DNA from: Thermoplasmata archaeon
GTDB lineage: Archaea; Thermoplasmatota; Thermoplasmata; UBA10834
Length of the DNA: 53,950 bases
Direction: 5' to 3'
Assembly (NCBI GenBank): GCA_049273895.1
Contig: JBASRQ010000165.1
Location: 1-53,950 of the forward strand
In this document: positions 1,419-49,325 of the stretch, piece by piece
Numbering within the stretch: position 1 is the stretch's first letter
Layout of the letters: the number at the start of each line of letters is the position of its first letter
Made by a program: the position numbers and the translations under genes
The notes under the pieces: generated by a model
Told to the model about the DNA's origin: nothing
Seen by the model: only the letters and a program-made list of their open reading frames with translations
Database searches by the model: none

Positions 1419-2627
1419 CTACGCGAACATCGGACCCGATTCCATCGCTTTCTCTGCGCCCTCATCAAGGACCTTCAGAGTGGCCTTTTCGAAGTCCACC
1501 ATCGTCACAATGTCCCTGTTCTCTCTGATCGCGAACATTCCAGCCTCTGTGCAGATAGCCTTGATGTCCGCGCCAGTCGAGCCCTCCGACTTCGCAGCGA
1601 GATCTTCGAGATTCACCGTGGAATCGAGGTTCATGCGCTTCGAGTGGATCCTGTAGATCTCAGTCCTCGATTCGAAGTTCGGCATCGGAATCTCGATGAT
1701 CCTGTCGAACCTTCCAGGCCTTAGAAGAGCTTCGTCCAGAATGTCGGGTCTGTTCGTGGCGCCAATGATCTTGACTTCGCCCAAGGGGTTGAACCCGTCG
1801 AGCTCTGCGAGGAGCTGCATGAGGGTTCTCTGGACCTCTCTGTCTCCAGAGGTCGCTAGCTCCAGCCTCTTCGCGGCAACGCTGTCAATCTCGTCTATGA
1901 AGACGATAGAAGGTGCCTTCTGTCTGGCAAGGTCGAACAGCTCTCTCACGAGCCTTGCGCCCTCACCTATGTATTTCTGTACGAGCTCCGAGCCGACGAA
2001 CCTGATGAACGTCGCATTCGTCTGCTTGGCAACCGCCTTCGCCAGCAGAGTCTTGCCGGTACCAGGCGGACCGACAAGCAGCACGCCCTTCGGCGGGTCG
2101 ATGCCGACCTTCTTGTAGAGCTCCGGCCTCAGCAGCGGATCCTCCACGGCCTCTCTGACCTCCAGGATCTGATCCTGCAGTCCGCCGATGTCGCCGTAGA
2201 CGGTGTCAGGCTTCGAGATTATCTCCGCGCCGACCACGATCGGGTCGAGCGATGGAGGCAAGACTCCCATGACTGCCAGGGTCTGTTTGTTCAATGCCAC
2301 CCGCGCGCCCGCAGTGAGCAGCTCCGTAGATACATAGTCAGATGTGCTCACTATGAAGTCGGGTCCGGTTGAACTCTTCACCACGACTCTGCCATCTGCC
2401 AGCACATCCTTGATCTGTCCTATGATGAGCGGGGGCGCTTTCAATCTCTCAAGCTCGGCCTTGAGCCTCTTCAGCTCCTTCTGGAGCCGAATAAGCTCCC
2501 CCTCGACAAACCTCTTCTCTCCTTCTACTCGGCGAGATTCTTCGACGAGCTCGAGGTTTCTTTCCTCAAGGACCGAAATCTTCCTGTGAATCTCTTCCAA
2601 CATCGGGCTTGCTTGGTCCTGTTCCAA
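1419..2627 (-). CDS. pan: proteasome-activating nucleotidase (PAN), AAA+ ATPase
   Basis: N-terminal coiled coil ([11 protein letters not shown]...[12 protein letters not shown]), Walker A GPPGTGKT, Walker B IVFIDEID, and a C-terminal hydrophobic-aromatic-X tail (MFA). Confidence 0.93.
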
Positions 2628-30860: not shown

Positions 30861-31030
30861 ATGATTCTGCCGCTGTGCACAACACCAGCAATGCTCTCCG
30901 ATCTGGGCTGAGAACAGAGTCCCGGGAAATCACACGAAGGGCACGAGGCTTGAGGTCCTTCCACCCAAGGCCGACGAGCGACTGATCGCGAAGACCGTCA
31001 CCAGACCGCAGACTGGCCCATGACCCGAAG

Positions 31031-31103
31031 TGGGCCCGTCGCGATTTGAACGCGAGTCACCAGCACCCCAAGCTGGAAGGATACCAAGCTACCCCACGGG
31101 CCC
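31031..31103 (-). tRNA. tRNA-Pro (anticodon GGG)
   Basis: The reverse complement folds by hand into a cloverleaf. Acceptor GGGCCCG/CGGGCCC; anticodon stem CCAGC/GCTGG with loop TTGGGGT; T arm TCGCG-TTCAAAT-CGCGA; discriminator A; no encoded CCA. Confidence 0.9.
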
Positions 31104-33814: not shown

Positions 33815-34347
33815 AAGAGAGCGTCGACTACATCCTTGACGGCATCAAAAGAACCTTCGAGACCGAAATTGGGAACACCGACAAGTTCGTGGACCACATA
33901 ATCAGCTCGAGGAAGGTCTTCATCTACGGTGTAGGCAGGTCCGGCCTGATCGCAAAGGCCTTCGCCATAAGGCTGGTCCAGATGGGGCTCGAGGTGTTCT
34001 TCATAGGGGAGACCGTCACGCCCATTGTAGAAGAGGGCAATCTCGTCATCATCGTATCCTACACAGGAGAGACGATGTCGGCGATGCAGACGGCGAACAT
34101 CGTCAGAAGGGTTGGGGCGAAGGTCGTGTCGATCACTGCGAACGCGAACTCGAAGCTAGCAGGGGCATCGAACCTCGTCATCCTAATACATCCGCCGAAG
34201 GACGAAGAGCGAAAGCGACTCGCCCCCCTAGGGACCCTGTTCGAAGACGCCACGATGATTTACCTTGACGGGATAGTGAAGATGCTCATGGAAAAGCTGG
34301 GCCAGAGCGAGGGCGCAATGCGCAAACGCCACGCTATTTGGGTCTAG
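33811..34347 (+). CDS. hxlB: 6-phospho-3-hexuloisomerase (SIS domain)
   Basis: KVFIYGVGRSGLIAKAFAIRLVQMGLEVFFIGETVTP...GTLFEDATMIYLDGIV...RHAIW parallels archaeal PHI sequences. The start overlaps the upstream stop (ATGA). Confidence 0.78.
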   Translation: MKESVDYILDGIKRTFETEIGNTDKFVDHIISSRKVFIYGVGRSGLIAKAFAIRLVQMGLEVFFIGETVTPIVEEGNLVIIVSYTGETMSAMQTANIVRRVGAKVVSITANANSKLAGASNLVILIHPPKDEERKRLAPLGTLFEDATMIYLDGIVKMLMEKLGQSEGAMRKRHAIWV

Positions 34348-35551
34348 CCTTGTCGTCCAGGGGCGAACCCGCATCTGGGGTCTTCGGCTCCGCCTCCTGG
34401 CCATGCTTGTTCCACCTGAGCAGCATCAGCGCCAGGGTGGAAAATGCAATCACGGCAACGATGCTGCCCGAGACAACCATGATCATCGGCAGATTGGCCT
34501 TGAGCCAGTCTCTGACCCTGCTAGTGAATCCCTTCTCGTCTATGCCCAGAAACGATTCGTGCGAGATGGAGGTGGTCTCGTTCGATATCTCAAACGACGA
34601 GTGGAGTATCAGGCCGGTTCCAGTCGTATAGTAGGACGAGTTCATGGCGACTGGAGAATACTGCCCCGAGGTCTTCGCCAGCGGCTCCGAGCTATAGCGA
34701 TAGAACGCTTGCACGGTGCCGTCCTCCTTGGCGAAATTGATATCCTGGGTCGGAAGCCCCGTCTGGTTCAACCTGTGCGTGAAGCTGGGGCCGTATATCT
34801 CCTCGTTCACCCTACTCGACACCGTCGTCATCGAACCATTTGGGCTGGTCGAGTTCTCCCTGATCATGAACATGTTCGTGGAGCCCCCGCCCTTGAGCAG
34901 GTGCTCGATGGCGAGTCCAGTGAAGCTCAACTCCTTCAGTATGTCGAGAGTGCAGTTTATCTTCATCTCCGTCCGGCCAAGGATCGTGTAGCTGCCGAAG
35001 GAGTTGGAGTATGTCACTGGATATTGGGTGATTTGGAACGAGAAGGTCAGATTGGCCCAGTTCTCGACGCTCGCAATCGTGTCAGTCGTCTGATTGAACA
35101 GCGAGACATCGGCGCTCATCCGGATCTGAGCGTACTCGCCTGACTCGACCCCGTTGGCGAACTGAACGGCTGTCGTATTCCATGTGACATTGTGGTGTGA
35201 GTCGAGATAGCCAGTGTAGATCGCCTCGGAACGGGAAAAGACGCCGTCGTGATTGGTATCGTTGTACAGGTACACGATGGGAAGACTGACCTCAAAAGAG
35301 GGGGCGAACAGATTGGTGCTGTGCTGAAAGACAACTCTCGGCCAGTCGAAAGTCACAGCGGCTGTCAGGTTGCCCGAGACGAAGACGGCCTTGAAGTTGT
35401 CCACGGAATAGTCGAGGAAGTGCTGCTCGTCAGCAGCCTGCGCATCCCCTATGGACCAGAAAGCCAGGACTGCAGCGCAAAGAACAGCCGCGAGCGACCC
35501 GAGCCGTGACCACAAAGAACTCCTCCTCCTCAATATGACCTTAACGGGCAC
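34334..35551 (-). CDS. secreted/membrane-anchored glycoprotein candidate (signal peptide, 12 N-x-S/T sequons, C-terminal TM anchor)
   Basis: N-terminal RRRSSLWSRLGSLAAVLCAAVLAFWSIGDAQA, C-terminal hydrophobic MIMVVSGSIVAVIAFSTLALMLL plus a charged tail. GTG start. The TATA-like agcatatatcg (35575-35583, minus) lies about 25 nt upstream. Confidence 0.7.
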   Translation of the reverse strand: MPVKVILRRRSSLWSRLGSLAAVLCAAVLAFWSIGDAQAADEQHFLDYSVDNFKAVFVSGNLTAAVTFDWPRVVFQHSTNLFAPSFEVSLPIVYLYNDTNHDGVFSRSEAIYTGYLDSHHNVTWNTTAVQFANGVESGEYAQIRMSADVSLFNQTTDTIASVENWANLTFSFQITQYPVTYSNSFGSYTILGRTEMKINCTLDILKELSFTGLAIEHLLKGGGSTNMFMIRENSTSPNGSMTTVSSRVNEEIYGPSFTHRLNQTGLPTQDINFAKEDGTVQAFYRYSSEPLAKTSGQYSPVAMNSSYYTTGTGLILHSSFEISNETTSISHESFLGIDEKGFTSRVRDWLKANLPMIMVVSGSIVAVIAFSTLALMLLRWNKHGQEAEPKTPDAGSPLDDKARPK

Positions 35552-35610
35552 TGGCGAGAAAAAGCTTTCTTGACGATATATGCTCGGGCAAGCGGCTTGC
35601 TGGGAATGGA

Positions 35611-36267
35611 TCAGGGGGGCACAGATTTGACCTTGAGCTTCCTTGTCCTGGTTTTCTTTGGGAGGCCGTCTGGCTCCTCCTTGAATACTGCAAATGCCAG
35701 CTCCTTATAGCCGTCGCCAGCGAGCCTGAAGGCCTTTATATCCTCGTTGATCGGATCGATCACGATCGCCGTGTGATAAGGTTGGTCGAACATCGTGCGC
35801 TGCGTTTCCAGATCGGTCCGAGAGAGGAAGCAGGTGTGGCCTGGGTGGGAATGGTACCAGCCGACCAGGATGTAGTCGAAGCCCGAATCGTCCAGGTTGG
35901 TGAAGAGATTCGGGAACGCCTCAGGGTCGAACCTGACCTTCGAGGATGAGCTCCTCAACTCGGTTGTGCCTATGTCCCTAACGACAGAGTAGGCCCGGCC
36001 ATTCCATTTCCTGACCTCGCCCAAGAGAAATCCCATGACCTCTAGCCTCCGGGGGGCCTCTCTCTCGGCGTGCGCCCGTATCTTCTTCTCGGCGGTGGTG
36101 GACAGGTACAACTCGAAAGGGTTCCCGGATTCCGCCGCCTCGGCGTAGAGACCGATGGAATCGCCGGACAGCCAATCGTGGGGCGCGAGCTTCGCTCGCG
36201 CAGGAGGCTCCTTCTCCTCGATGGGCCTCTTCGTCTCCCTGACAATCCTTGGCCTAGCCAACCGCAT
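35611..36267 (-). CDS. JAMM/MPN+ metalloprotease (Rpn11/JAMM1-like isopeptidase candidate)
   Basis: Conserved Glu in LEVMGFLLGE; JAMM motif GWYHSHPGHTCFLSRTD (H-x-H-x7-S-x2-D). The start (GTG 36270 / ATG 36267) overlaps the E2 stop. Confidence 0.85.
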   Translation of the reverse strand: MRLARPRIVRETKRPIEEKEPPARAKLAPHDWLSGDSIGLYAEAAESGNPFELYLSTTAEKKIRAHAEREAPRRLEVMGFLLGEVRKWNGRAYSVVRDIGTTELRSSSSKVRFDPEAFPNLFTNLDDSGFDYILVGWYHSHPGHTCFLSRTDLETQRTMFDQPYHTAIVIDPINEDIKAFRLAGDGYKELAFAVFKEEPDGLPKKTRTRKLKVKSVPP

Positions 36268-36775
36268 CACCCACGATCCTCACACGCCTATCTGACTGGT
36301 CCATGACCACAGGGGGCTGGTACTTGTTCCTGTTGAAGTACGCGGCCGCCCTTGTGCACATGTCGTTCCCGAAGGGGTTCTTCGGATTTGGATTCACGAG
36401 AAGCGATTCTATGCCTTTGATGAACGTGACTAGGTTCGAGCTGAAATCCCAGTTCTCAAGGAGTTTCGTGCAGACATAGCCGCCGTCGTCTGGGGCCATT
36501 ATGTTGGGGTGGAATATCGCAGTCTGCCATTTCACAATCGGCTTCTCCATCGGGTAGTCTTCGCTGACAATCACTGCCATCCTGTGAACGAACCTGTGGA
36601 CGACCTTCCCCTGCTCCCAATCGGGCCCTGGCACTCTAAGGAATGTCACGTTAATCATCACAGGGAACGAGGCGAGCGCGGAATCAGAAATTGCTATGTG
36701 ATGCCTCAGCTCACGCTGGCACATCTCAATCTCGTTCTTCAACCGGACTCTGAGCAGGTCCAATGGCAGAGGCAT
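36254..36775 (-). CDS. ubiquitin-conjugating enzyme E2-like protein (UBC fold)
   Basis: YPMEKPIVKWQTAIFHPNIMAPDDGGYVCTKLLENWDFSSNLVTFIKGIESLLVNPNPKNPFGND matches the UBC consensus (YPxxPP.v.F.t.i.HPNi...G.iC...L...W......l..i..LL..PNp..P) almost position by position. Confidence 0.85.
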   Translation of the reverse strand: MPLPLDLLRVRLKNEIEMCQRELRHHIAISDSALASFPVMINVTFLRVPGPDWEQGKVVHRFVHRMAVIVSEDYPMEKPIVKWQTAIFHPNIMAPDDGGYVCTKLLENWDFSSNLVTFIKGIESLLVNPNPKNPFGNDMCTRAAAYFNRNKYQPPVVMDQSDRRVRIVGDAVG

Positions 36776-36780
36776 TTCGA

Positions 36781-37020
36781 CTAGCCGCCCTCGGGGTCCG
36801 GAATCAGCTCTAGAATGTCATCGCCTCTGATGCCGGCATCCAAGAGCGTGTTCCCTCCTCGGAGGACCTTCTTGCCCTTCCGAAGGACATATGCGCCCAT
36901 GTCCTTGCTCCAGAAAGTCGCCGCGCTTTCGATGACCTCGTCGACGGTGTTCTCGTTCTCGAGTTCCATCTCGACAGTGGCGCCGGTCTCGGCATTCTTG
37001 ACTTTGATCCTAATTGCCAA
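36781..37020 (-). CDS. ubiquitin-like beta-grasp protein ending in Gly-Gly
   Basis: 79 aa, MAIRIKVKNAETGATVEMELENENTVDEVIESAATFW...ILELIPDPEGG followed directly by TAG. TTG start with GGTGG 4-5 nt upstream. It lies 5 nt upstream of the E2 start. Confidence 0.8.
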   Translation of the reverse strand: MAIRIKVKNAETGATVEMELENENTVDEVIESAATFWSKDMGAYVLRKGKKVLRGGNTLLDAGIRGDDILELIPDPEGG

Positions 37021-37082: not shown

Positions 37083-37874
37083 TCATGGCTTCAGGTGGAC
37101 GGGGCAATTCGGGTTGAGTGGGATCTCGAGTTCCTCGGACTGGTTCCGCTGCCCGTCGTAGTAGAAAGCGTTTGCGATGAGCATGTCCGGCCTGCTCGAA
37201 ACGACCTTGAGCGCCTCCCTCACCATGATCGCGGAAATCACGCTTGTGGTCGTGATCTCGGCCGCCAGCCTCGGCTCGTGGAACACGACATCCTTGCCAG
37301 TGCAGCTGAACCTCAGCTCTGCGACTTTCGAGTGGCTGCGGTTCATGCCGCATTGGACGCATGCACCAACCGGCGGCCTCGCGACCATAACCTTCCCGAG
37401 AAACCCTTCCATTCCCCCATCGATGTAGACCTTGCCCGCGTGGTATGAATGCGAGTTTGTGTGGATTCGCGCCTGAATATTGTCCAGGCAACCTAGTACG
37501 AGGTCATAATCCTTGAATGCCCCCTCCGGAAGGTCTTCGATCCTCTGGCGCATCGGGACGGGCCTCGCATCCGGGGAAATGCTCAGTATGCCACGGGCGA
37601 CAGCGTCTGCCTTGCTCGCCCTTCTTTGAGCGTCCTCCCTGCTGAAGAAGAGGCATCTGTTCAGATTGGAGCCGACAACATGGTCCATGTCGATGACGGT
37701 TATGTTCCTGAAGCCCGATAGAGCGAGGTTCTTGGCCACCTCGTTTCCGAGCGCTCCCGCGCCGACCATCATTACCTTGGACCTCGCGATGGACTCGAGG
37801 TCCAGCCAGCCGATTCGCTTTGACCGGTCGAACACGTCGTCGTCGATCGACCCCACTCTCAGCTGCTCCTCCAT
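37083..37874 (-). CDS. E1-like adenylyltransferase (ThiF/MoeB/UBA family)
   Basis: VGAGALGNEVAKNLALSGF, VIDMDHVVGSNLNRCLFF, LDNIQAR, zinc motif CVQCG, and Cys-Thr in RFSCTGKD. Confidence 0.88.
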   Translation of the reverse strand: MEEQLRVGSIDDDVFDRSKRIGWLDLESIARSKVMMVGAGALGNEVAKNLALSGFRNITVIDMDHVVGSNLNRCLFFSREDAQRRASKADAVARGILSISPDARPVPMRQRIEDLPEGAFKDYDLVLGCLDNIQARIHTNSHSYHAGKVYIDGGMEGFLGKVMVARPPVGACVQCGMNRSHSKVAELRFSCTGKDVVFHEPRLAAEITTTSVISAIMVREALKVVSSRPDMLIANAFYYDGQRNQSEELEIPLNPNCPVHLKP

Positions 37875-37898
37875 GATGCGGGAGGAATAGTCCTAGTA

Positions 37899-37908
37899 AA
37901 TTAAAACT
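37899..37908 (-). promoter_or_regulatory. TATA-like box for the E1-Ubl-E2-JAMM cassette (leaderless geometry)
   Basis: Minus-strand TTTTAATTTA ends about 25 nt upstream of the E1 ATG (37874). No SD lies between them. Confidence 0.5.
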
Positions 37909-37958
37909 TCGGCTATCTGGCGAGGGGGCGAATGCGCCGGCTTTCCATGCATTCGATC

Positions 37959-39080
37959 TCAATCCCAGATGAGTCTGCCATCTGTCATGATGGCTTTTTC
38001 GTCTCCGCTCCTGCTGACCGCGACGATATCGGGCTTCTTAACCAAACCGTCAAGATGTATCAGCGCTTCTGCGTCCCCATCGTAGTTGGAACCGACCGCG
38101 AAGTGGCATGTGCCGTAGACCTTCTCGTCCTCCAGCATGTTGGCCGTGATCTTTGCCTTCCTGTTGAGGCCGATGCCCAGCTCGCCGATGTGCTTGGCGT
38201 TCTTTGCATACGTCGGCGCCACCGATGATTTGATGGTGCCCTTCTTGCCGGCGTCCAAAGCCTTCTTGGTCCCGAGCCTGACCGACTCATCGAGCTTGGC
38301 AGCCTCCGAGCCTCCGCTTATGCTTGTGATGAACCCGTCCTTGATCTCGGTCAGTATGGGTTTCTTGATCACCACTTCTCCCTCACTGAGGACAATCGAT
38401 CCATCGAATGCGATGATACCGTGTGCAGTCCCGAGTGCCGGGGACACATAGACCTCGCCCGACGGGATGTTGCCCGCGCGTCCAAGCTTTCGGAAGTCGC
38501 CGTCATCCGGCCTTGGCTTTCGACCTCTGACTCCGATGGTCACGTCTGTTCCTCCGGGGGCAGTTACCCGTACATGGTCGGCCCACTGGAAGAGCTTGCA
38601 CACCCTGGCCGCATCCGACCTCAGCTGAGTGTAATCGATCGGGACGGTGCGGCGGAACATATCGCGAGTTATGCCGGGAGACCAGAACCCGCGGATCTTC
38701 TTCTCCTCATAGAGCATGTCGTAAATGTGGTCATACCGACGCTTGCCCTTGTATCCCTCCTTGAGGCCCCACTTGTCCTTGCCCAGCCTGTCCTTGCTGA
38801 TAGATATCGCGATGTCGGGGACTGCTGACAGTGCCCTAATGACTTCATCCTCCGCAAGGTCGAACTGGCCCTTCTCCCTCTGGAACAGCAGGGTCGGTGC
38901 GGCTCTCGCCTCTAACGCAGCATCGTACAACGCCATCGATATCTCGCGCACCTCGATTCCTGGGTTCGAGATGATCAGAATCCGATCGTCCTTCCTGACC
39001 GCGAGGACGTCTCTCACGGCTGCCCGAGCGCCACGAGCTAGCGCTCTGTCATAAGTCCCCTCGAATGCGTCCATGCCCAA
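37959..39080 (-). CDS. M29-family aminopeptidase (AmpS/aminopeptidase T-like)
   Basis: NIPSGEVYVSP...GIIAFDGSIV...GELGIGLN...HFAVGSNY resemble thermophilic metalloaminopeptidase landmarks. Confidence 0.7.
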   Translation of the reverse strand: MGMDAFEGTYDRALARGARAAVRDVLAVRKDDRILIISNPGIEVREISMALYDAALEARAAPTLLFQREKGQFDLAEDEVIRALSAVPDIAISISKDRLGKDKWGLKEGYKGKRRYDHIYDMLYEEKKIRGFWSPGITRDMFRRTVPIDYTQLRSDAARVCKLFQWADHVRVTAPGGTDVTIGVRGRKPRPDDGDFRKLGRAGNIPSGEVYVSPALGTAHGIIAFDGSIVLSEGEVVIKKPILTEIKDGFITSISGGSEAAKLDESVRLGTKKALDAGKKGTIKSSVAPTYAKNAKHIGELGIGLNRKAKITANMLEDEKVYGTCHFAVGSNYDGDAEALIHLDGLVKKPDIVAVSRSGDEKAIMTDGRLIWD

Positions 39081-39173: not shown

Positions 39174-40175
39174 ATGAGCGGAGCACCGTGTTCGAAAGCG
39201 ATGTTCAGCCTCGAGGCGCCGTCCGAAGTCGAGGGTACTGTGGATGTGTGCATTATCGGTGCTGGTCCTGCCGGGATGACCTCGGCTGTCTACCTCGCAC
39301 GAAAGAAGCTCTCGACAGCGATCGTGACCCAAGACATCGGCGGACAGGTGGCATGGACGCTCGGCATCGAGAACTACATGGGTTACCAGTACATCACCGG
39401 CCGGGAGCTGACCGCGAAGTTCGATGAGCAGGTCAAGCAGTTCCCGATTCCAATCGTGCTTGACCAAGTCAATCGTATCACGAGCGAGCCAGATCTGTTC
39501 AAAATCGAGACGACAGGCGGCAGGTCGATCAACGCAAGGTCTATTATAATCGCCTCCGGCAAACGGCCGAAGGAGCTTGGGGTCCCGAACGAGCGAGAGT
39601 TCGTCGGAAAGGGATTGTCCTATTGCGCAACCTGCGACGCCCCTCTTTTCGGAGGAAAGGATGTCGCCGTTTGCGGAGGAGGAAATTCCGCGATCCAGTC
39701 AGTGATCGAGTTGTCCCAGGTGGCCGCGAAGGTCTACATCATCTCGAGAAACCCCTGGAAGGCAGATGCGATTGTATGCGACAAGGCGGATCACCTGAAG
39801 AATGTTGAGAGAAGGCTGGGCTACGAAGTCCTTGAGATAATGGGCGATAGGCTGGTAGAAGGAATAAGGATCCGCGAGAAGACCTCAGGAAAAGAGGAGA
39901 CCCTGAGAGTGAGCGGTGTGTTCGTCGAGGTCGGTCTCAATCCGAACACTGATTTCGCCAGAGGGATCGTGAACCTGAATGAGTATGGTGAGATCGAGGT
40001 CAATTGCAGATGCGAGACGAGTGTGCCAGGCATATTCGCCGCTGGAGATGTGACCACAGTCCATGAAAAACAGATAGTTGTGGCTGCCGGCGAGGGCGCG
40101 AAGGCGGCTCTGAGCGCCCACGAGTACTTGCTGAAGAGGCCGACATTCATCCTAGCCGGTCAAGATACTTCGTAG
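39174..40175 (+). CDS. trxB: thioredoxin-disulfide reductase-like flavoprotein
   Basis: FAD motif VCIIGAGPAGMTSAVY, redox-active CATC, second dinucleotide motif VCGGGNSA, and C-terminal GIFAAGDV. ATG 39174 is preferred over track start 39099. Confidence 0.85.
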   Translation: MSGAPCSKAMFSLEAPSEVEGTVDVCIIGAGPAGMTSAVYLARKKLSTAIVTQDIGGQVAWTLGIENYMGYQYITGRELTAKFDEQVKQFPIPIVLDQVNRITSEPDLFKIETTGGRSINARSIIIASGKRPKELGVPNEREFVGKGLSYCATCDAPLFGGKDVAVCGGGNSAIQSVIELSQVAAKVYIISRNPWKADAIVCDKADHLKNVERRLGYEVLEIMGDRLVEGIRIREKTSGKEETLRVSGVFVEVGLNPNTDFARGIVNLNEYGEIEVNCRCETSVPGIFAAGDVTTVHEKQIVVAAGEGAKAALSAHEYLLKRPTFILAGQDTS

Positions 40176-41613
40176 AGATCGGCTTGCCGTGGAGCTCGAT
40201 GTCGTACTGCTTCAGAATCTCCCTGACTTCTTGCTTCACTGTCTTATCCAGGGCGACAGGCCTGTGCTCTTTCAGAAGCCTCTTGACCTCGTCTCTCGCT
40301 GCCTGCCTGATGGGCTCCAACTTCGCGTCTGGCGCACATTGCCTCATCGCGATCTTGGGAAGGAGTATCTCGCTTCTGAAATGCTTCAGCGTGTGAACAT
40401 CCTTCATGAAGTATCCGCCAGGGCCCACGCGCGCAATCGCATCGAAGGCCAACGTGTCCTTGTTGACCTTGACGCCGTTCCAGCCACGGAGTATGTTCCG
40501 CCAGAGCTCACAGTCCATGACGACCTGCTCGAGCGATTCGCACCCTGACCGGTCGAAGCCCCCTATGCCCACCACCTGGTCGGCCCCTGCCAACACGGGG
40601 ATGAGCCCGCTGATCGCTTTCTGGTATCCGATCTCGTAGCCTGGCACTGAACCCGAAGCCGCTATTCCTCCCACCTGGCACGGGAGCCCGTATCGCCTTG
40701 CCATCTGGCACCCGGCAGCATTGATCAGGGCTCCCTCAGTGGAGCCCGACAAGAAGACGCCTGTCTTCATGTCCATGGGCCCGCTCTCCGAACTGTACAG
40801 TATAGGGGCGCGAGGGGCCGCCGTCTCCGTGATGACAGCTCCTCCAAGGTTCTCCGCGTTGACGAGGGCGACGGTGCCCGCCAGCGTGACAGGGCATACG
40901 GAACCGGAGATGGCCATTGACAGATGAACAACCGGAAGCCCAGCCCGCGCAAAGACGACCGCCGCCTCGATGTCCCCCTTCTCATAGCGCAAGGGGGTGA
41001 TGGGCGTGTGAGTCATCGAGACGATCGGCCTCTTCCTGAGCTCCTTCTCAGAGCCGACGACCGCCGATGCCATCTTGATCAGGTACTCTGCGTCGGTTGT
41101 GTCTCCCGCCCCATGCTGAACGTGCTTGCCCGTGTAGATTAGCGATGCAGCATACTCGTGCAGGTTGGATATCTCCGGAGGGACATCGGTCGCGACCACC
41201 TCGGCCCAGTAGAGATCGACCTCCGGCATGGCGTCACAGACTATCGTGAAATCGACGAGGTCGTTCATGGTGGATTTCCGCTTGATCTGAGCGTCGACAT
41301 CCCACACATCGGTAGGCTGCCCGTCGTTGCACCCTTGGATCTTGTCAATTGCGGGCAGTCTCAGGTCGTGCGCTTTTTCTCTGCCGCTCATCACGAATTC
41401 CTTGGGAGCTATGGCAAGGGCGTCCTTGACCATCCGCTCGGGTATTCTGGCTATCTGTGACTTGTGATCGACCCTCGCTCCGTGGCCTTCGAGAATCGAG
41501 AGCACCTCAGGGCTGGTGACCTTGATTCCGACTTCTTCCAGTATCTTGATGGATTCGTTGTGAACGACCTCCTCTTCTTCGCTCGTCAGAGGGTTGAACA
41601 CAGCTCTCGCCAC
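40147..41613 (-). CDS. MttB-superfamily methyltransferase (non-pyrrolysine type)
   Basis: 488-aa uninterrupted ORF with the overall trimethylamine-methyltransferase-family pattern as I recall it, and no in-frame TAG. Confidence 0.75.
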   Translation of the reverse strand: MARAVFNPLTSEEEEVVHNESIKILEEVGIKVTSPEVLSILEGHGARVDHKSQIARIPERMVKDALAIAPKEFVMSGREKAHDLRLPAIDKIQGCNDGQPTDVWDVDAQIKRKSTMNDLVDFTIVCDAMPEVDLYWAEVVATDVPPEISNLHEYAASLIYTGKHVQHGAGDTTDAEYLIKMASAVVGSEKELRKRPIVSMTHTPITPLRYEKGDIEAAVVFARAGLPVVHLSMAISGSVCPVTLAGTVALVNAENLGGAVITETAAPRAPILYSSESGPMDMKTGVFLSGSTEGALINAAGCQMARRYGLPCQVGGIAASGSVPGYEIGYQKAISGLIPVLAGADQVVGIGGFDRSGCESLEQVVMDCELWRNILRGWNGVKVNKDTLAFDAIARVGPGGYFMKDVHTLKHFRSEILLPKIAMRQCAPDAKLEPIRQAARDEVKRLLKEHRPVALDKTVKQEVREILKQYDIELHGKPISTKYLDRLG

Positions 41614-46889: not shown

Positions 46890-49325
46890 CTAAATCTCGG
46901 GCGAAGAAAGGCCTTCGAGCTCACGTTCTACGAGAGAGCCTATGTCATTGGATCCCACGCTCGTTAAGAGCTGCTTCGACTCCTCAAGCATCTTGCGCGC
47001 GCGGACAACATCACCGCTTTCCTTGAGCATCAGCCCGAACTCCATCTTGCGCATACCTAGGCTGCGAGGGACTTCCATGCCGTCAAGGGCTGCGATACTC
47101 TCGTAGTAGTACTCCTCGCTCGCCTTCCAGTTCTTGGATGATCTTTCGGCCATGCCCAGGTTCGCAGATGCAGCCGACATCCCGATCCGGTCGTCCAGCT
47201 CAGTGACGATGTCCAACGCTCGAAAGCAGTGTTCCTTTGCGAGCTCCAGCGAGCCTGATTTGATGAGTACTTCGGCCAGCGAGGTCAGCGCGTATGCCTT
47301 GGACCTCGGCTGACCGGTTTCGTCTGAAAGCCGGACGGCGTTCTCCAGGTGCAGCTTCGCCTCATCCGAGCGACCAAGCGAGGCGCACGCGATGCCCATG
47401 TTGACATAAACGTTGGCTAGTTCCACAGGGCCGAAGCCAGCGGCGCACTTCGAGAAGTGCTCGATAGCGTCTTCATACATGCCTCGACCGATGAAGACAT
47501 TGCCCAGCTCCATGTGCGCCAGAAGCATCCCCTTGGAATCCATAACGGCCATGGCATCCATCGCGCTCTTCTCGAGCAGTTCTTGGGCCTTCGCGTAGTT
47601 GCCGAGCTTGCTCTCGACTACTCCGAGACCGCGCAGCGCCTTCGCCCTGACGCCCGGGATCTCCTTCGCCTCATCAAGAGCGTCAGAGAAGAACTTCGAA
47701 GCCTTCTTCAGCTCATCCTTCTTGCTCTTGGTTTTGCCCATCTCGACAAGGGCCTCGGCCTTCTGGTTCGACTCCCCCTCTTTGGAAACCTTCTCGAGCA
47801 GAGGCCACGCATCATCGTCCTGACCAACGAGGCTCGCGGTTCTCGCCTTCAAGAGCATGACAGGATGCACATACTTCGGCTTGGACGCGTCGAAGAATGA
47901 AATGGTCTCCCAGAGGCGCTGCACATTGCCCTCGGCAAGCAGCTCGTCGCTCATCCTGGACATCATCATCTCGGCCTCGAGGACCCGGTTCGCGCGCATT
48001 AAGTGAAACAAACGCTCCTGCGGATTGTTGGCTTTGAGATAGTGGTCAGCAGCCGCGCTATGCCATCTGGCACGCTCCTCTTTCGTCATGGAGCTGTAGA
48101 CGAAATCGCGGAGCGAGGCGTGGATCTCGAACTTGCCGGGAGCCACCTCCCTGAGCATCGACCCCTTCCTAGCCTGGCGCAACTCCCTCGGAATCGCATC
48201 CGTCGGAAAAGGCTGCTGGAACACAGATGCGAGCTGCAAAAGAGACCTCTCATCCTCATGAAGACCTGCGTAGAATTTCTCCTCGAAGAACCTGGATATC
48301 TGGTATTTGGCCTCCGTGGGGCTCGACTCTGTGACCATCTCAAGCGAGAGCGGATGGCCGTGCGTGATGCGAGCCAACTCATCCGCGACCGACCCTTCGA
48401 TCCCTCTGGACCTCAACACCTCTAGGGCCGCCTTCTTCTCGAGGCCGCCGAGCTCTATCTCCGCGACCTCCTTTCTGGCGACCATGTCCGAGGAATCGTA
48501 GAACTTGGGGTCTTCCTCTGAGGTCACGACGATCTTCGCGGACCCGTTGCTGTGCCTCAGCATCTTGAGGAACTCCTGGAGGGTGTCGGAAGCATCGACG
48601 TCGTCGAACACGAAGGTGTAACCATCCTCAGCCAGCTCTTCGTTCAGGAGAAAGCTCAGCTCGCCGAGCTCATATCTGCCGGAGGCGAGATAGGCCGCCA
48701 ACTTCCTGCCGCCATTCTCCGCGAAGAATCTCCCCATGGAATCGGCGAGCGTTCGAGGGGCATCCCACGGCTTGGCCGAGTACCAGAAGATCCTCTGCCC
48801 GGACAATTCGGACACAGCCTTTGCCACGAGAGTCGTCTTGCCTATGCCAGCAATCCCTCTTATCGATAGGACCTTCAAATTCGGCGAGGCGAGCGCCTTG
48901 CTGACCGCCTCGAGTTCCTTCTCCCGCCCGTAGAATTCCCTGACCGAGGGCAGAGGAGATGACCGCTTGGCTGATTTCGCTTTCGAGATCGATTCGGGAG
49001 AAACCCGGGTGGAATCGACCATCGGCGTGATGTTGTTGTCCTTGATATACTGGAGCACATCGGCGGCCTTCGACTTGCCGCTCATCGTCAGGAAGTAGAC
49101 CTTTCGCCTGGCTTTCCCCCTGCGGACATGCTTCAGCTTCTCGTCCACAATCTCTGAAGCCTTGAGCTTCTTGAGCTCGATGGCCGCATGCGCCCTTGAT
49201 ATTGCGCATGCCTGTGAGATGCCGTCTTGGGTGACGTCGAACGGTGCTTCGTATTTGTCCTCGTACCTCACGTAGTTGTTCAAATGATACAGAATACGTT
49301 CGGAAACAGTCAGTTCACCGGCCAT
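46890..49325 (-). CDS. wHTH - STAND/NB-ARC-like P-loop NTPase - TPR repeat protein
   Basis: N-terminal wHTH-like segment (ISRAHAAIELKKL...RRKVYFLTMSG), Walker A IRGIAGIGKTTL, Walker B TFVFDDVD, and a C-terminal half made of TPR-like repeats (for example AKAYALTSLAEVLIKSGSLELAKEHCFRAL). Confidence 0.8.
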   Translation of the reverse strand: MAGELTVSERILYHLNNYVRYEDKYEAPFDVTQDGISQACAISRAHAAIELKKLKASEIVDEKLKHVRRGKARRKVYFLTMSGKSKAADVLQYIKDNNITPMVDSTRVSPESISKAKSAKRSSPLPSVREFYGREKELEAVSKALASPNLKVLSIRGIAGIGKTTLVAKAVSELSGQRIFWYSAKPWDAPRTLADSMGRFFAENGGRKLAAYLASGRYELGELSFLLNEELAEDGYTFVFDDVDASDTLQEFLKMLRHSNGSAKIVVTSEEDPKFYDSSDMVARKEVAEIELGGLEKKAALEVLRSRGIEGSVADELARITHGHPLSLEMVTESSPTEAKYQISRFFEEKFYAGLHEDERSLLQLASVFQQPFPTDAIPRELRQARKGSMLREVAPGKFEIHASLRDFVYSSMTKEERARWHSAAADHYLKANNPQERLFHLMRANRVLEAEMMMSRMSDELLAEGNVQRLWETISFFDASKPKYVHPVMLLKARTASLVGQDDDAWPLLEKVSKEGESNQKAEALVEMGKTKSKKDELKKASKFFSDALDEAKEIPGVRAKALRGLGVVESKLGNYAKAQELLEKSAMDAMAVMDSKGMLLAHMELGNVFIGRGMYEDAIEHFSKCAAGFGPVELANVYVNMGIACASLGRSDEAKLHLENAVRLSDETGQPRSKAYALTSLAEVLIKSGSLELAKEHCFRALDIVTELDDRIGMSAASANLGMAERSSKNWKASEEYYYESIAALDGMEVPRSLGMRKMEFGLMLKESGDVVRARKMLEESKQLLTSVGSNDIGSLVERELEGLSSPEI

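Follow-up and report, generated by a model that had tools for sequence, protein, structure and literature searches.

The stretch of DNA analysed here, 53,950 nucleotides from an uncultured Thermoplasmata archaeon (the 54-kb window), carries on its minus strand four genes in the order E1 (263 aa), Ubl (a ubiquitin-like modifier, 79 aa), E2 and Rpn11-like JAMM. The E2 gene, the third of the four, had been placed at 36254-36775 in a preliminary description that gave no strand; an ORF of exactly this extent was found, and it lies on the minus strand. The four genes and the two genes flanking them are as follows.

34334..35551, minus strand: membrane glycoprotein-like protein, unannotated, 405 aa (hydrophobicity and sequon counts)
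35611..36270, minus strand: Rpn11-like JAMM/MPN+ metalloprotease, 219 aa (Pfam JAB, 1.1e-12; Prok-JAB, 1.2e-08)
36254..36775, minus strand: E2 ubiquitin-conjugating enzyme, 173 aa (ATG-to-stop ORF; UQ_con match)
36781..37020, minus strand: Ubl modifier, 79 aa, TTG start (β-grasp model and free GG end)
37083..37874, minus strand: E1-like Ubl-activating enzyme, 263 aa (Pfam ThiF, 2.3e-46)
37959..39080, minus strand: M29-family aminopeptidase-like protein, 373 aa (Pfam Peptidase_M29, 8.6e-12)

The Ubl stop and the E2 start are 5 nt apart, and the JAMM gene begins before the E2 gene has ended, with an overlap of 17 nt if its start codon is GTG and of 14 nt if it is ATG. The order E1-Ubl-E2-JAMM is conserved in about 22 Thermoplasmata MAGs, in which the E2 identity falls to as little as 64%; the enzymes of the set retain their catalytic residues and the Ubl retains its GG end. 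In these MAGs the cluster lies among genes for an M29 peptidase, MttB-family, SIS and TIM-barrel proteins and the ribosomal proteins S9, L13 and L18e, and in distant Methanomassiliicoccales and Thermoplasmatales loci it is still found beside SIS or S9/L13/L18e. Proteins in which the Ubl is fused to the E2, or the E2 to the JAMM (P0248 and P0259), exist in relatives, and such fusions lend support to a predicted functional coupling of these parts.

The M29 gene is co-directional with the operon. It is directly upstream of E1 in every locus of the L001-L022/L024 group that reaches that far, and the distant loci L025-L026 lack it. Inspection by eye revealed an AT-rich TATA-like box between the M29 and E1 genes, which suggests that the promoter of the E1 operon is separate from the M29 gene. 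At the other end, the JAMM gene is followed in 19 of the closer loci (L001-L022) by the gene for the 405-aa protein, the other loci ending before it. The encoded protein combines a signal peptide and 12 N-x-S/T sequons with a transmembrane segment at the C-terminal end and a short cytoplasmic tail that contains Lys; it diverges fast (37-91% identity) and has no match in Pfam, NCBIfam or PADLOC. It is uncertain whether the M29 protein or the 405-aa protein forms part of the conjugation system.

A RING regular expression in six frames and Pfam scans of 49 ORFs revealed no E3 of the RING, U-box or HECT type in the 54-kb window, and an Rfam scan of the window gave no matches. The zinc ribbons encoded in the window are generic only and lie far from the operon. 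A STAND NTPase gene is located 10 kb from the cluster.

The inventory of E1, Ubl, E2 and JAB is that of bacterial Bil-type operons, and an anti-virus role of the Bil or CBASS-Cap2 type has to be weighed, in which the Ubl would be put on viral proteins and block assembly, as in bacterial Bil. Shared with CBASS Cap2/Cap3 are the E1 adenylation domain, the E2 and the JAB, and with Bil (ISG15-like) also the Ubl; the E1 adenylation domain partially matches the Cap2 'E1-E2' models of PADLOC 2.0.0 (2023) at up to 46 bits, and the STAND NTPase would fit a defence setting. However, the E2 and the Ubl have no PADLOC match at all, the JAB matches are weak (21 bits at most), the E1 and JAB matches are at the level of generic domains only, and the Bub proteins in the PDB are distant from the E1 (4e-06). 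Moreover, the cluster holds the same housekeeping chromosomal position in about 22 MAGs, with SIS or S9/L13/L18e kept as neighbours even in the distant loci, and the Ubl sequences of the clade are 78-97% identical, unlike fast-evolving, patchy defence genes. We regard a defence system as improbable and dropped it on the grounds of the missing PADLOC matches for E2 and Ubl, the housekeeping synteny and the lack of a variable defence island. The comparison with E2-like proteins of defence operons, drawn in the preliminary description, is for the same reasons beside the point.

The E2 protein and its family

The Pfam scan of the E2 gave a UQ_con match (PF00179, E=1e-14) above the gathering cutoff (54.7 vs 27 bits), in which residues 62-143 align to profile positions 45-125 of 140, and no other Pfam family at E<=0.01; the assignment first made by eye is upheld by this check. 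A phmmer search against the PDB yielded 270 chains at E<=1. The 60 of these that are listed all bear the names of eukaryotic proteins, E2s in nearly every case, and the best among those listed are clam E2-C (2e2c, 5e-12) followed by Ubc13 (1e-11). The segment to which the preliminary description had drawn attention is present in the ORF as residues Y74-F147, and the UBC landmarks named there (YP..P, HPN, Cys, Trp and LL.PNP..P) co-align with solved E2s in three phmmer alignments against the PDB; H89-P90-N91 and C102 fall on the HPN and the active-site Cys of 2e2c, Ubc13 and UBE2D2. The spacing between HPN and Cys is, as had been noticed, three residues longer than in UbcH5-type E2s, N91 to C102 being 11 residues against 8 in UbcH5 and Ubc13, and the 3-residue gap falls directly after HPNI, the inserted residues being M93-A94-P95. 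In a pairwise comparison with UBE2D2, the identity was 33% over 82 residues. Among 34 members of the E2 family, at 53-92% identity, H89, P90, N91, C102, W109, P129 and N130 are invariant; the members are marked by the signature HPNIxxPxxGGxVC, in which the distance from N to C is 11. Judged by its sequence, the flagged gene encodes a genuine ubiquitin-conjugating (E2) enzyme, for which thioester chemistry is predicted.

The AF2 model of the E2 (pLDDT 87.4, pTM 0.81) has the UBC α/β fold with an N-terminal helix, a four-stranded antiparallel sheet and a crossover helix. The order of elements is α1, β1-β4, a 3-10 helix, α2 and α3 (138-149), with a long β2-β3 hairpin; α4 is absent, and the tail is predicted to be disordered over residues 162-173, the pLDDT being below 50 from residue 162. 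Foldseek returned a probability of 1.00 for all 50 matches listed, nearly all of them eukaryotic E2 structures at TM 0.6-0.73, with UBE2D, Rad6, UBE2E and Ubc13 as top neighbours.

With the eukaryotic class I E2s (UBE2D/UbcH5, UBE2N/Ubc13, UBE2A/Rad6) the Thermoplasmata E2 shares the UBC fold, YPxxxP, HPN, the catalytic Cys, the Trp and LLxxPNPxxP, at a core identity of 33-35%. It differs from them by the spacing of 11 instead of 8, the long β2-β3 hairpin, the missing α4, a disordered tail carrying a conserved [RK]-[IVL]-[IVL]-[GRE], the additional invariant residues C19, H25, H64 and C140, and DFSSN in place of the loop-7 'SPA'. The 8-residue spacing and the α1-α4 set of canonical eukaryotic class I E2s are thus lacking, and because of the spacing of 11, the missing α4 and a Pfam match that ends at position 125 of 140, we file the protein as a member of the UBC superfamily and not as UbcH5-type. 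The description of its motifs as near-canonical therefore holds for the catalytic core, whereas the N-terminal half diverges and the model has no helix α4. The basic character ascribed to the C-terminal tail is weak, since residues 150-173 contain 4 K/R against 3 D/E.

At E<=1e-5 the E2 family comprises 168 members, one of them on a closed 1.98-Mb chromosome, and all organism-named ones are from Thermoplasmatota/'Euryarchaeota' MAGs. The named outgroups nearest to the family are archaeal (Methanomassiliicoccaceae, Ca. Sysuiplasma, Thermoplasmatota and Theionarchaea), and a profile search adds Micrarchaeota and Bathyarchaeia; in two outgroup representatives no E1 or JAMM is adjacent to the E2. 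E2s of the UBC type like this one have a wide distribution among uncultured archaea (Thermoplasmatota, Theionarchaea, Micrarchaeota, Bathyarchaeia). The degree of motif conservation, which had been thought notable for a prokaryotic E2, is less exceptional, since many lineages of uncultured archaea have E2s of the PF00179 type. Family members are already labelled 'ubiquitin-conjugating enzyme E2' by JGI and NCBI, and some 'E2 C' by JGI; a 'Ca. Thermoplasmatota E2' clade is present in the E2/UEV tree of a 2023 preprint. In our own neighbour-joining tree of 89 core columns, the bootstrap value for the regex-defined family set was 0/200, because variants that lack the Cys or have larger insertions nest inside it. 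The nested topology of a second neighbour-joining analysis of the E2s, without support, is indicative only.

The family distribution bears on another explanation, namely that the sequence is eukaryotic contamination or that a eukaryotic E2 gene was recently transferred into one MAG. The best PDB matches of the E2 are all eukaryotic and the 'E2 C' names of JGI point the same way, but the 168 members, all named ones archaeal and one on the closed chromosome, the archaeal synteny, an identity to eukaryote-type E2s of about 35% even in the core, the family's own signature and the archaeal nearest named outgroups speak against it. This explanation is scarcely credible and was dropped in view of the archaeal members, the synteny, the low identity and the archaeal outgroups.

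The modifier, the activator and the protease

The Ubl ends in PDPEGG directly before the stop codon and is translated in mature form; the GG-stop is found in 25 of the 26 related Ubl loci. Its lysines are at positions 6, 8, 39, 48, 50 and 51. Within the cluster it shows the highest conservation, with 78-97% identity across the clade. The match to the Pfam ubiquitin family is weak and under the cutoff (E=0.004), and no source gives a functional name for it, the named matches being 'hypothetical protein' with no Pfam domain recorded. The AF2 model (pLDDT 90.4) shows a β-grasp fold, for which Foldseek retrieved ubiquitin at TM 0.83-0.88 and 27-30% identity, and also SUMO and Hub1; the ubiquitin of Caldiarchaeum (6fno_D) matches at TM 0.88. 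There is no MoaD, ThiS or SAMP among the top 50 Foldseek matches. A BLASTP comparison with human ubiquitin aligned 68 aa at 28% identity and brought the two GG termini into register.

The E1 consists of a single adenylation domain of ThiF/MoeB size, the ThiF domain spanning residues 20-259, with a short crossover loop that carries Cys191 and a Cys3His zinc site. The residues kept at 95% or more in 25 homologues are G38xG40xxG43, D62, R73, K88, D131, C172/C175/C257/H260 and R188-F-S-C191. Pfam and PDB alignments revealed neither a catalytic-Cys domain insertion nor a C-terminal ubiquitin-fold domain. The best PDB matches are the adenylation domains of eukaryotic E1s (SAE2/UBA2, 4e-23; UBA7, 1e-21; UBA3, 4e-21; UBA1, 5e-21), and MoeB (2e-14) and ThiF (7e-14) score lower than these. 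The alignment to SAE2 jumps the Cys domain and stops at the zinc motif; since residues 205-259 align after the SAE2 Cys domain, an insertion of roughly 220 residues is missing from the E1. All curated NCBIfam cutoffs are far from being reached (ThiF 96/275, MoeB 83/449, UbaA 64/450). By sequence comparison, the adenylation domain is nearer to eukaryotic E1s than to MoeB/ThiF.

The JAMM protein has a complete MPN+ motif, E77, H140-x-H142, S150 and D153 being kept in 26 homologues. In the PDB it is matched best by the Rpn11 of yeast and human (3e-13), the Rpn11-like protein of Caldiarchaeum (6fjv, 8e-11), CSN5 and AMSH. At its N-terminus it carries the motif RPR[IV][IV]. It is presumed to be the deconjugase of the Ubl.

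These three proteins also bear on a sulfur-carrier explanation, in which the Ubl, like MoaD, ThiS or SAMP, would be adenylated so that a thiocarboxylate could form (molybdopterin, thiamine or tRNA thiolation), with the E2 and JAMM as accessory or vestigial parts. The E1 is indeed MoeB/ThiF-sized, shares the zinc site and the Cys in the crossover loop, and matches ThiF, MoeB and UbaA below threshold, and the JAMM likewise matches the haloarchaeal desampylase (49 bits, cutoff 130). Against this, the E1 is far under all these cutoffs, is nearer to eukaryotic E1s and has no rhodanese domain; in structure, the 50 nearest neighbours of the Ubl are modifiers of ubiquitin type; and the E2, with its invariant HPN and Cys, is under strong purifying selection, and sulfur transfer needs no E2. 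We consider a sulfur carrier very improbable and dropped it because of the E1 cutoffs, the Ubl neighbours and the conserved E2. Haloarchaeal sampylation (SAMP/UbaA and HvJAMM1) is to be compared as well: an archaeal GG-ended Ubl, a MoeB-sized E1 and a JAMM deconjugase are shared with it, but it operates without an E2, whereas the Thermoplasmata cluster keeps a UBC E2 and a Ubl that is ubiquitin-like and not MoaD-like, and its E1 and JAMM stay below the UbaA (64 bits, cutoff 450) and desampylase cutoffs.

A proposed conjugation cascade and its relatives

It is likely that the E2 belongs to a compact, chromosomally fixed Ubl-conjugation system of this archaeon. From the domain identities, the conserved catalytic residues, the folds, the operon and the synteny described above, it most probably serves as a minimal and reversible cascade of Ubl conjugation to proteins; all of its chemical steps, and its independence of an E3, we infer. 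The Ubl would be synthesised with an exposed Gly-Gly C-terminus, so that no processing would be needed. The MoeB-sized E1 would bind ATP (GxGxxG, R73, K88, D131) and adenylate Gly79, and its crossover-loop Cys191 would then hold the Ubl as a thioester. The Ubl would pass by transthioesterification to Cys102 of the E2, in which Asn91 of the HPN would stabilise the oxyanion, and the E2, either without an E3 or with one encoded elsewhere, would attach it to lysines in target proteins, in the Ubl or in the E2 itself. Finally, the Rpn11-like JAMM metalloprotease would take the Ubl off again. A tie of the cascade to the PAN/proteasome pathway is speculation.

Counting against a conjugation system are the lack of an E3 in 54 kb, the E1 without a ubiquitin-fold domain (UFD), the E2 model with TM 0.6-0.73 and without α4, and the Ubl under the Pfam cutoff. 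In eukaryotes and Caldiarchaeum it is the ubiquitin-fold domain of the E1 that recruits the E2 (PMC5654768); as the E1 described here has no such domain, the meeting of E1 and E2 would need another explanation.

The homologous system of Caldiarchaeum has been rebuilt in vitro, with an E1/E2/RING ubiquitylation cascade and Rpn11-type deconjugation (PMC5654768). The operon of Ca. Caldiarchaeum subterraneum encodes Ub, E1-like, E2-like, srfp(RING) and Rpn11 proteins (Nunoura 2011, PMC3082918; Hennell James 2017, PMC5654768; PDB 6fjv, 6fno). Both operons encode a modifier of ubiquitin fold, an E2 of UBC type in which HPN and Cys are present, and a JAMM resembling Rpn11. Caldiarchaeum has in addition a small RING-finger E3, which neither the Thermoplasmata cluster nor the 54-kb window contains; its E1 has a Cys domain and a C-terminal UBL/UFD, whereas the Thermoplasmata E1 is a lone adenylation domain of 263 aa; its ubiquitin is a pro-form needing cleavage by Rpn11, whereas the Thermoplasmata Ubl is made mature; and the Thermoplasmata E2 differs by the insertion of three residues between HPN and Cys and by the lack of α4. 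Of the features of Clusters I and II (Hennell James 2017), the di-Gly modifier, the UBC E2 and the Rpn11-like JAMM are present, and the E1 UFD and the RING E3 are absent. The Thermoplasmata E2 system is an uncharacterised addition to an archaeal kind that is already known, which makes it a solid but unsurprising find.

Related bacterial Ub/E1/E2/JAB operons have reportedly been described by Iyer, Burroughs and Aravind. The UBL-less E1 and the gene set of E1, E2, Ubl and JAB are shared with these operons and with the archaeal 'Cluster III' clusters, in which the E1 has no C-terminal ubiquitin-like domain and which comprise E1, E2, Ubl and JAB (Hennell James 2017 Supplementary Note 4, PMC5654768). 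In a bacterial cluster from Armatimonadia (L027) the E2 has the same HPNIMPPERGGAVC motif, with 34% identity over 83 aa, but that cluster is larger, with two E2s, a 408-aa E1, a 389-aa JAB and a zinc-ribbon-rich protein. A further mark of Cluster III and these operons is an E2 that groups with bacterial E2-like proteins; for the Thermoplasmata E2, the Armatimonadia protein has the family motif, the nearest named outgroups are archaeal and not bacterial, and the neighbour-joining tree is without support.

Ubiquitylation was long held to be specific to eukaryotes, and the operons of Caldiarchaeum and Asgard archaea are the current models of its origin; Thermoplasma is a classic model organism for the 20S proteasome. 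A four-gene version without an E3 would broaden the phylogenetic base of E2-dependent conjugation, since the cluster is fixed at one chromosomal position across a whole Thermoplasmata clade. It would also allow E1-to-E2 transfer in the absence of a ubiquitin-fold domain to be studied in a natural system of very small size, and one would have to ask whether proteins are tagged for degradation in relatives of Thermoplasma. Its importance is lessened by the fact that the E2 family is already annotated in public databases and present in a published tree, and that the activity is predicted only.

A more far-reaching proposal, which we put forward tentatively and hold to be rather doubtful, is that the cluster is a vertically inherited ubiquitylation machine of ancestral grade, with a ready-made ubiquitin, a MoeB-sized E1 with a eukaryote-like adenylation domain, and a UBC E2 working without an E3 or UFD recruitment. 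Recruitment might then proceed via the conserved tail motif common to E2 and JAMM, and substrates might be fed to the PAN-proteasome. If this were true, ubiquitylation by way of an E2 would be older than the Asgard/TACK lineage, early Thermoplasmatota would already have possessed it, and the cluster would be the simplest natural E1-E2-DUB system for mechanistic work.

Conjugates of the Ubl would have a recognisable mark. Since R65 is the last K/R of the Ubl, the tryptic remnant expected on lysines is the 14-residue GDDILELIPDPEGG.

The E2 gene and its conserved residues

The flagged gene at 36254-36775 (minus strand) is an ORF running from ATG to stop that encodes 173 aa, and the plus-strand frame is full of stops; the peptide quoted in the preliminary description corresponds to residues Y74-F147. 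The Pfam scan matched UQ_con as the sole family (E=1e-14; 54.7 bits against a curated cutoff of 27 bits), with E2 residues 62-143 aligned to profile positions 45-125 of 140. By phmmer, 270 PDB chains were retrieved at E<=1, of which the best 60 are all eukaryotic by protein name and nearly all E2s, headed by clam E2-C (5e-12) and Ubc13 (1e-11). In the three alignments inspected, YP..P, HPN, Cys, Trp and LL.PNP..P are in register with the PDB E2s, as expected of the UQ_con-type E2 with aligned catalytic motifs that had been proposed, and a 3-residue gap lies immediately after HPNI. The distance from N91 to C102 is 11 residues, compared with 8 in canonical E2s, in agreement with the three additional residues originally noticed. 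The ORF, the profile match, the PDB alignment and this spacing therefore confirm the earlier observation. The C-terminal tail, which had been called short and basic, is present but barely basic (4 K/R versus 3 D/E). The motif conservation had also been considered notable; the motifs do align, but they are less exceptional in the wider picture: the gene belongs to a conserved archaeal operon for minimal ubiquitin-like conjugation, a type that had been recognized and annotated before.

Among 34 E2 homologues with 53-92% identity, the residues H89-P90-N91, M93, D97-G98-G99-Y100-V101-C102, W109, P129-N130 and P134 are invariant. Besides the catalytic Cys, C19, H25, H64 and C140 are likewise invariant in 34/34, and H64 and C140 persist in more distant E2 clades; judged from this conservation, the four residues could form a metal site or a disulfide making up for the missing α4. 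In the AF2 model (pLDDT 87.4), α1 is followed by a sheet of four strands whose β2-β3 hairpin is unusually long; a 3-10 turn behind the Cys, the crossover helix and α3 come next, and the chain ends in a disordered tail without α4. Foldseek matched the model to UBE2D, Rad6, UBE2E and Ubc13 at probability 1.0, with TM of only 0.6-0.73 and 21-26% identity for the eukaryotic E2s. By inspection, the tail (36257-36325, minus strand) keeps [RK]-[IVL]-[IVL]-[GRE] in about 32 of the 34 members (RIVG in the window), and the N-terminal extension of JAMM (36235-36255, minus strand) keeps RPR[IV][IV][RK]E. It is tempting to speculate that the two stretches represent one short docking motif, a candidate for the way in which E2 might be recruited by an E1 without UFD.

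Organization and conservation of the operon

The core consists of four co-directional genes, with a gap of 5 nt between Ubl and E2 and an overlap of 14-17 nt between E2 and JAMM. The window proteins were compared by tblastn against 27 related genomic loci.

Core operon genes and p405, with tblastn identity across related loci
37874-37083, minus strand, E1, core operon gene, 60-94%
37020-36781, minus strand, Ubl, core operon gene, 78-97% (top of the conservation ranking)
36775-36254, minus strand, E2, core operon gene, 64-96%
36270-35611, minus strand, JAMM, core operon gene, 50-90%
34334-35551, minus strand, p405, membrane glycoprotein-like protein of 405 aa, 37-91%

The order across related loci is M29 peptidase, E1, Ubl, E2, JAMM and p405; an MttB-family gene borders this block at one end, SIS and TIM-barrel genes at the opposite end. 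This order is kept in loci L001-L022 and L024 wherever the contig reaches far enough, as E2 identity falls from 96% to 64%. At three distant loci the core genes stand beside the same neighbours: Ubl-E2-JAMM adjoins the SIS gene in L025 (Methanomassiliicoccales) and S9/L13/L18e in L023 (Thermoplasmatales), and E1-Ubl-E2 adjoins the SIS and TIM-barrel genes in L026 (a rumen methanogenic archaeon). Such conserved order and neighbours argue for vertical inheritance of the operon within Thermoplasmata, rather than for a mobile or defence island.

The p405 product carries a signal peptide and 12 N-glycosylation sequons, together with a C-terminal transmembrane segment and a Lys-containing cytoplasmic tail of 25 aa; it gave no family match. 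The gene lies directly downstream of JAMM in 19 related loci and evolves fast; its product could be a conjugation substrate or a mere neighbour. By eye, AT-rich TATA-like boxes were seen in 37875-37958, some 30-36 nt ahead of the E1 start (TTTTAATTTA), and in 35552-35610, upstream of p405 (CATATATCG); on this evidence, transcription may run in separate units for the M29 gene, E1, Ubl-E2-JAMM and p405. The MttB-superfamily methyltransferase gene (40147-41613, minus strand), which keeps its synteny with the operon at most of the closer loci, is an uninterrupted ORF of 488 aa; thus it has no in-frame UAG and no pyrrolysine.

Partner proteins and the proposed cascade

The Ubl has 79 aa and a β-grasp fold (AF2 pLDDT 90.4). 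In Foldseek its model matched ubiquitin with TM 0.83-0.88 and 27-30% identity and also superposed on SUMO, Hub1 and the ubiquitin of Caldiarchaeum; the best 50 matches included no structure of MoaD, ThiS or SAMP. At 25 of 26 loci the Ubl terminates with GG-stop. The homologue at the Methanomassiliicoccales locus L025 (7710-7997) carries 13 residues beyond GG (…PDPEGGSLSAKGGVHLQDG) and looks like a pro-form needing JAMM processing, as in Caldiarchaeum. In PDB, E1 (263 aa) best matches eukaryotic adenylation domains, those of SAE2, UBA7, UBA3 and UBA1 (4e-23 to 5e-21), with MoeB and ThiF matching less well (about 1e-14); the alignments showed that it lacks the Cys domain of roughly 220 residues and the UFD. 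Its homologues conserve the ATP-binding residues, a Cys3His zinc site and the R188-F-S-C191 loop. E1 scored below every curated ThiF, MoeB and UbaA threshold, and on the last of these a sampylation system was rejected. JAMM is closest in PDB to Rpn11 (3e-13) and a Caldiarchaeum Rpn11-like protein (8e-11), and its motif E...HxH...S..D is intact.

We propose that the Ubl would be made mature, with no processing required; that E1 would adenylate Gly79, hold the modifier as a thioester on Cys191 and hand it to Cys102 of E2; and that E2 would transfer it to lysines by aminolysis, Asn91 stabilizing the oxyanion, and JAMM would reverse the modification. Homologous Caldiarchaeum proteins carry out the cascade in vitro, stimulated by a RING protein (Hennell James 2017, PMC5654768). 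By analogy, the Thermoplasmata system probably works like the Caldiarchaeum/Asgard ubiquitylation operons; it differs in that E1 lacks a UFD, the cluster has no RING E3 and the Ubl is mature instead of a pro-form. Compared by description, the UFD-less E1 fits 'Cluster III' and bacterial operons (Hennell James 2017). A Bil or CBASS defence system was rejected, since PADLOC gave no match for E2 or Ubl. Features worth pursuing are the absence of an E3 in the window, of a UFD in E1 and of α4 in E2, the free-GG ubiquitin, the extra invariant Cys/His residues of E2 and its conserved tail motif.

Family distribution and genomic setting

At E<=1e-5 the E2 family comprises 168 proteins, every one with PF00179, and those with an organism name are all Thermoplasmata, Thermoplasmatota, Methanomassiliicoccales or 'Euryarchaeota RBG' MAGs; some are labelled 'ubiquitin-conjugating enzyme E2 C' by JGI or 'ubiquitin-conjugating enzyme E2' by NCBI. 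The closest genome is OY970070.1, an uncultured Thermoplasmata MAG closed as a 1.98-Mb chromosome (E2 96% identical in amino acids). An exhaustive profile search of 1.84 billion representatives gave 3441 matches at E<=1e-3, 29 of them at E<=1e-30. The signature HPNIxxPxxGGxVC, with N-to-C spacing 11, marks the family, and Methanomassiliicoccaceae and Ca. Sysuiplasma are among its named members. In neighbouring clades the spacing is 9, 10, 13-14 or 18; their named members belong to Theionarchaea, Micrarchaeota, Bathyarchaeia and Thermoplasmata, and Ub-E2 fusions occur among them. Against each non-family group, eukaryote-type spacing-8 E2s included, the window E2 shows about 33-39% identity in the core. 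A crude NJ tree without bootstrap support places the family among prokaryotic clades of non-canonical spacing, with spacing-8 sequences outermost. A 2023 preprint (10.1101/2023.07.25.550441) independently recovers 'Ca. Thermoplasmatota E2' as a deep branch of the archaeal E2/UEV clade; in the literature searched, no paper characterizes the Thermoplasmatota system.

Among homologous proteins, P0252 is a true Ubl(GG)-E2 fusion and P0248 and P0259 are E2-JAMM fusions of 534 and 682 aa, which support functional coupling; P0242 and P0296 are E2s with C-terminal zinc ribbons. Ten proteins of about 225 aa (P0269, P0274, P0278, P0281, P0285, P0286, P0289, P0290, P0293 and P0295) join an N-terminal Ubl-like domain to a family E2 domain that has lost the catalytic Cys and are thus UEV-like; the gene for P0278 (locus L030, 6001-6696) adjoins an Arf/Ras-like small GTPase and a DUF835 protein. 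In a bacterial cluster from Armatimonadia (L027, 7782-14128), one E2 has the same HPNIMPPERGGAVC motif as the window family; the cluster also encodes a secreted trypsin-like protein, a Ubl ending AG, an E1 of 408 aa, a JAB of 389 aa, a second E2 and a protein with many zinc ribbons.

At 56% G+C, the window represents ordinary chromosomal DNA and encodes among others TruD, thermosome, GrpE-DnaK-DnaJ, PGK, ribosomal proteins S9/L13/L18e, a class I (W/Y) tRNA synthetase and PheRS alpha. No RING-like pattern was found in any frame, and no E3-type domain in the 49 window ORFs scanned. The Rfam gathering-threshold scan of the whole window gave zero matches, despite a tRNA-Pro(GGG) called by ARAGORN at 31030-31103 (minus strand). 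A PAN-type proteasome-activating AAA ATPase (1419-2627, minus strand; AAA 2.8e-45, proteasomal ATPase OB domain 7.9e-14) is encoded 34 kb from the operon and may bear on what becomes of conjugates. A STAND NTPase of 811 aa that contains NB-ARC and TPR repeats, by its domains a putative signalling or possibly immunity-type protein, is encoded at 46890-49325 (minus strand), about 10 kb away from the operon.
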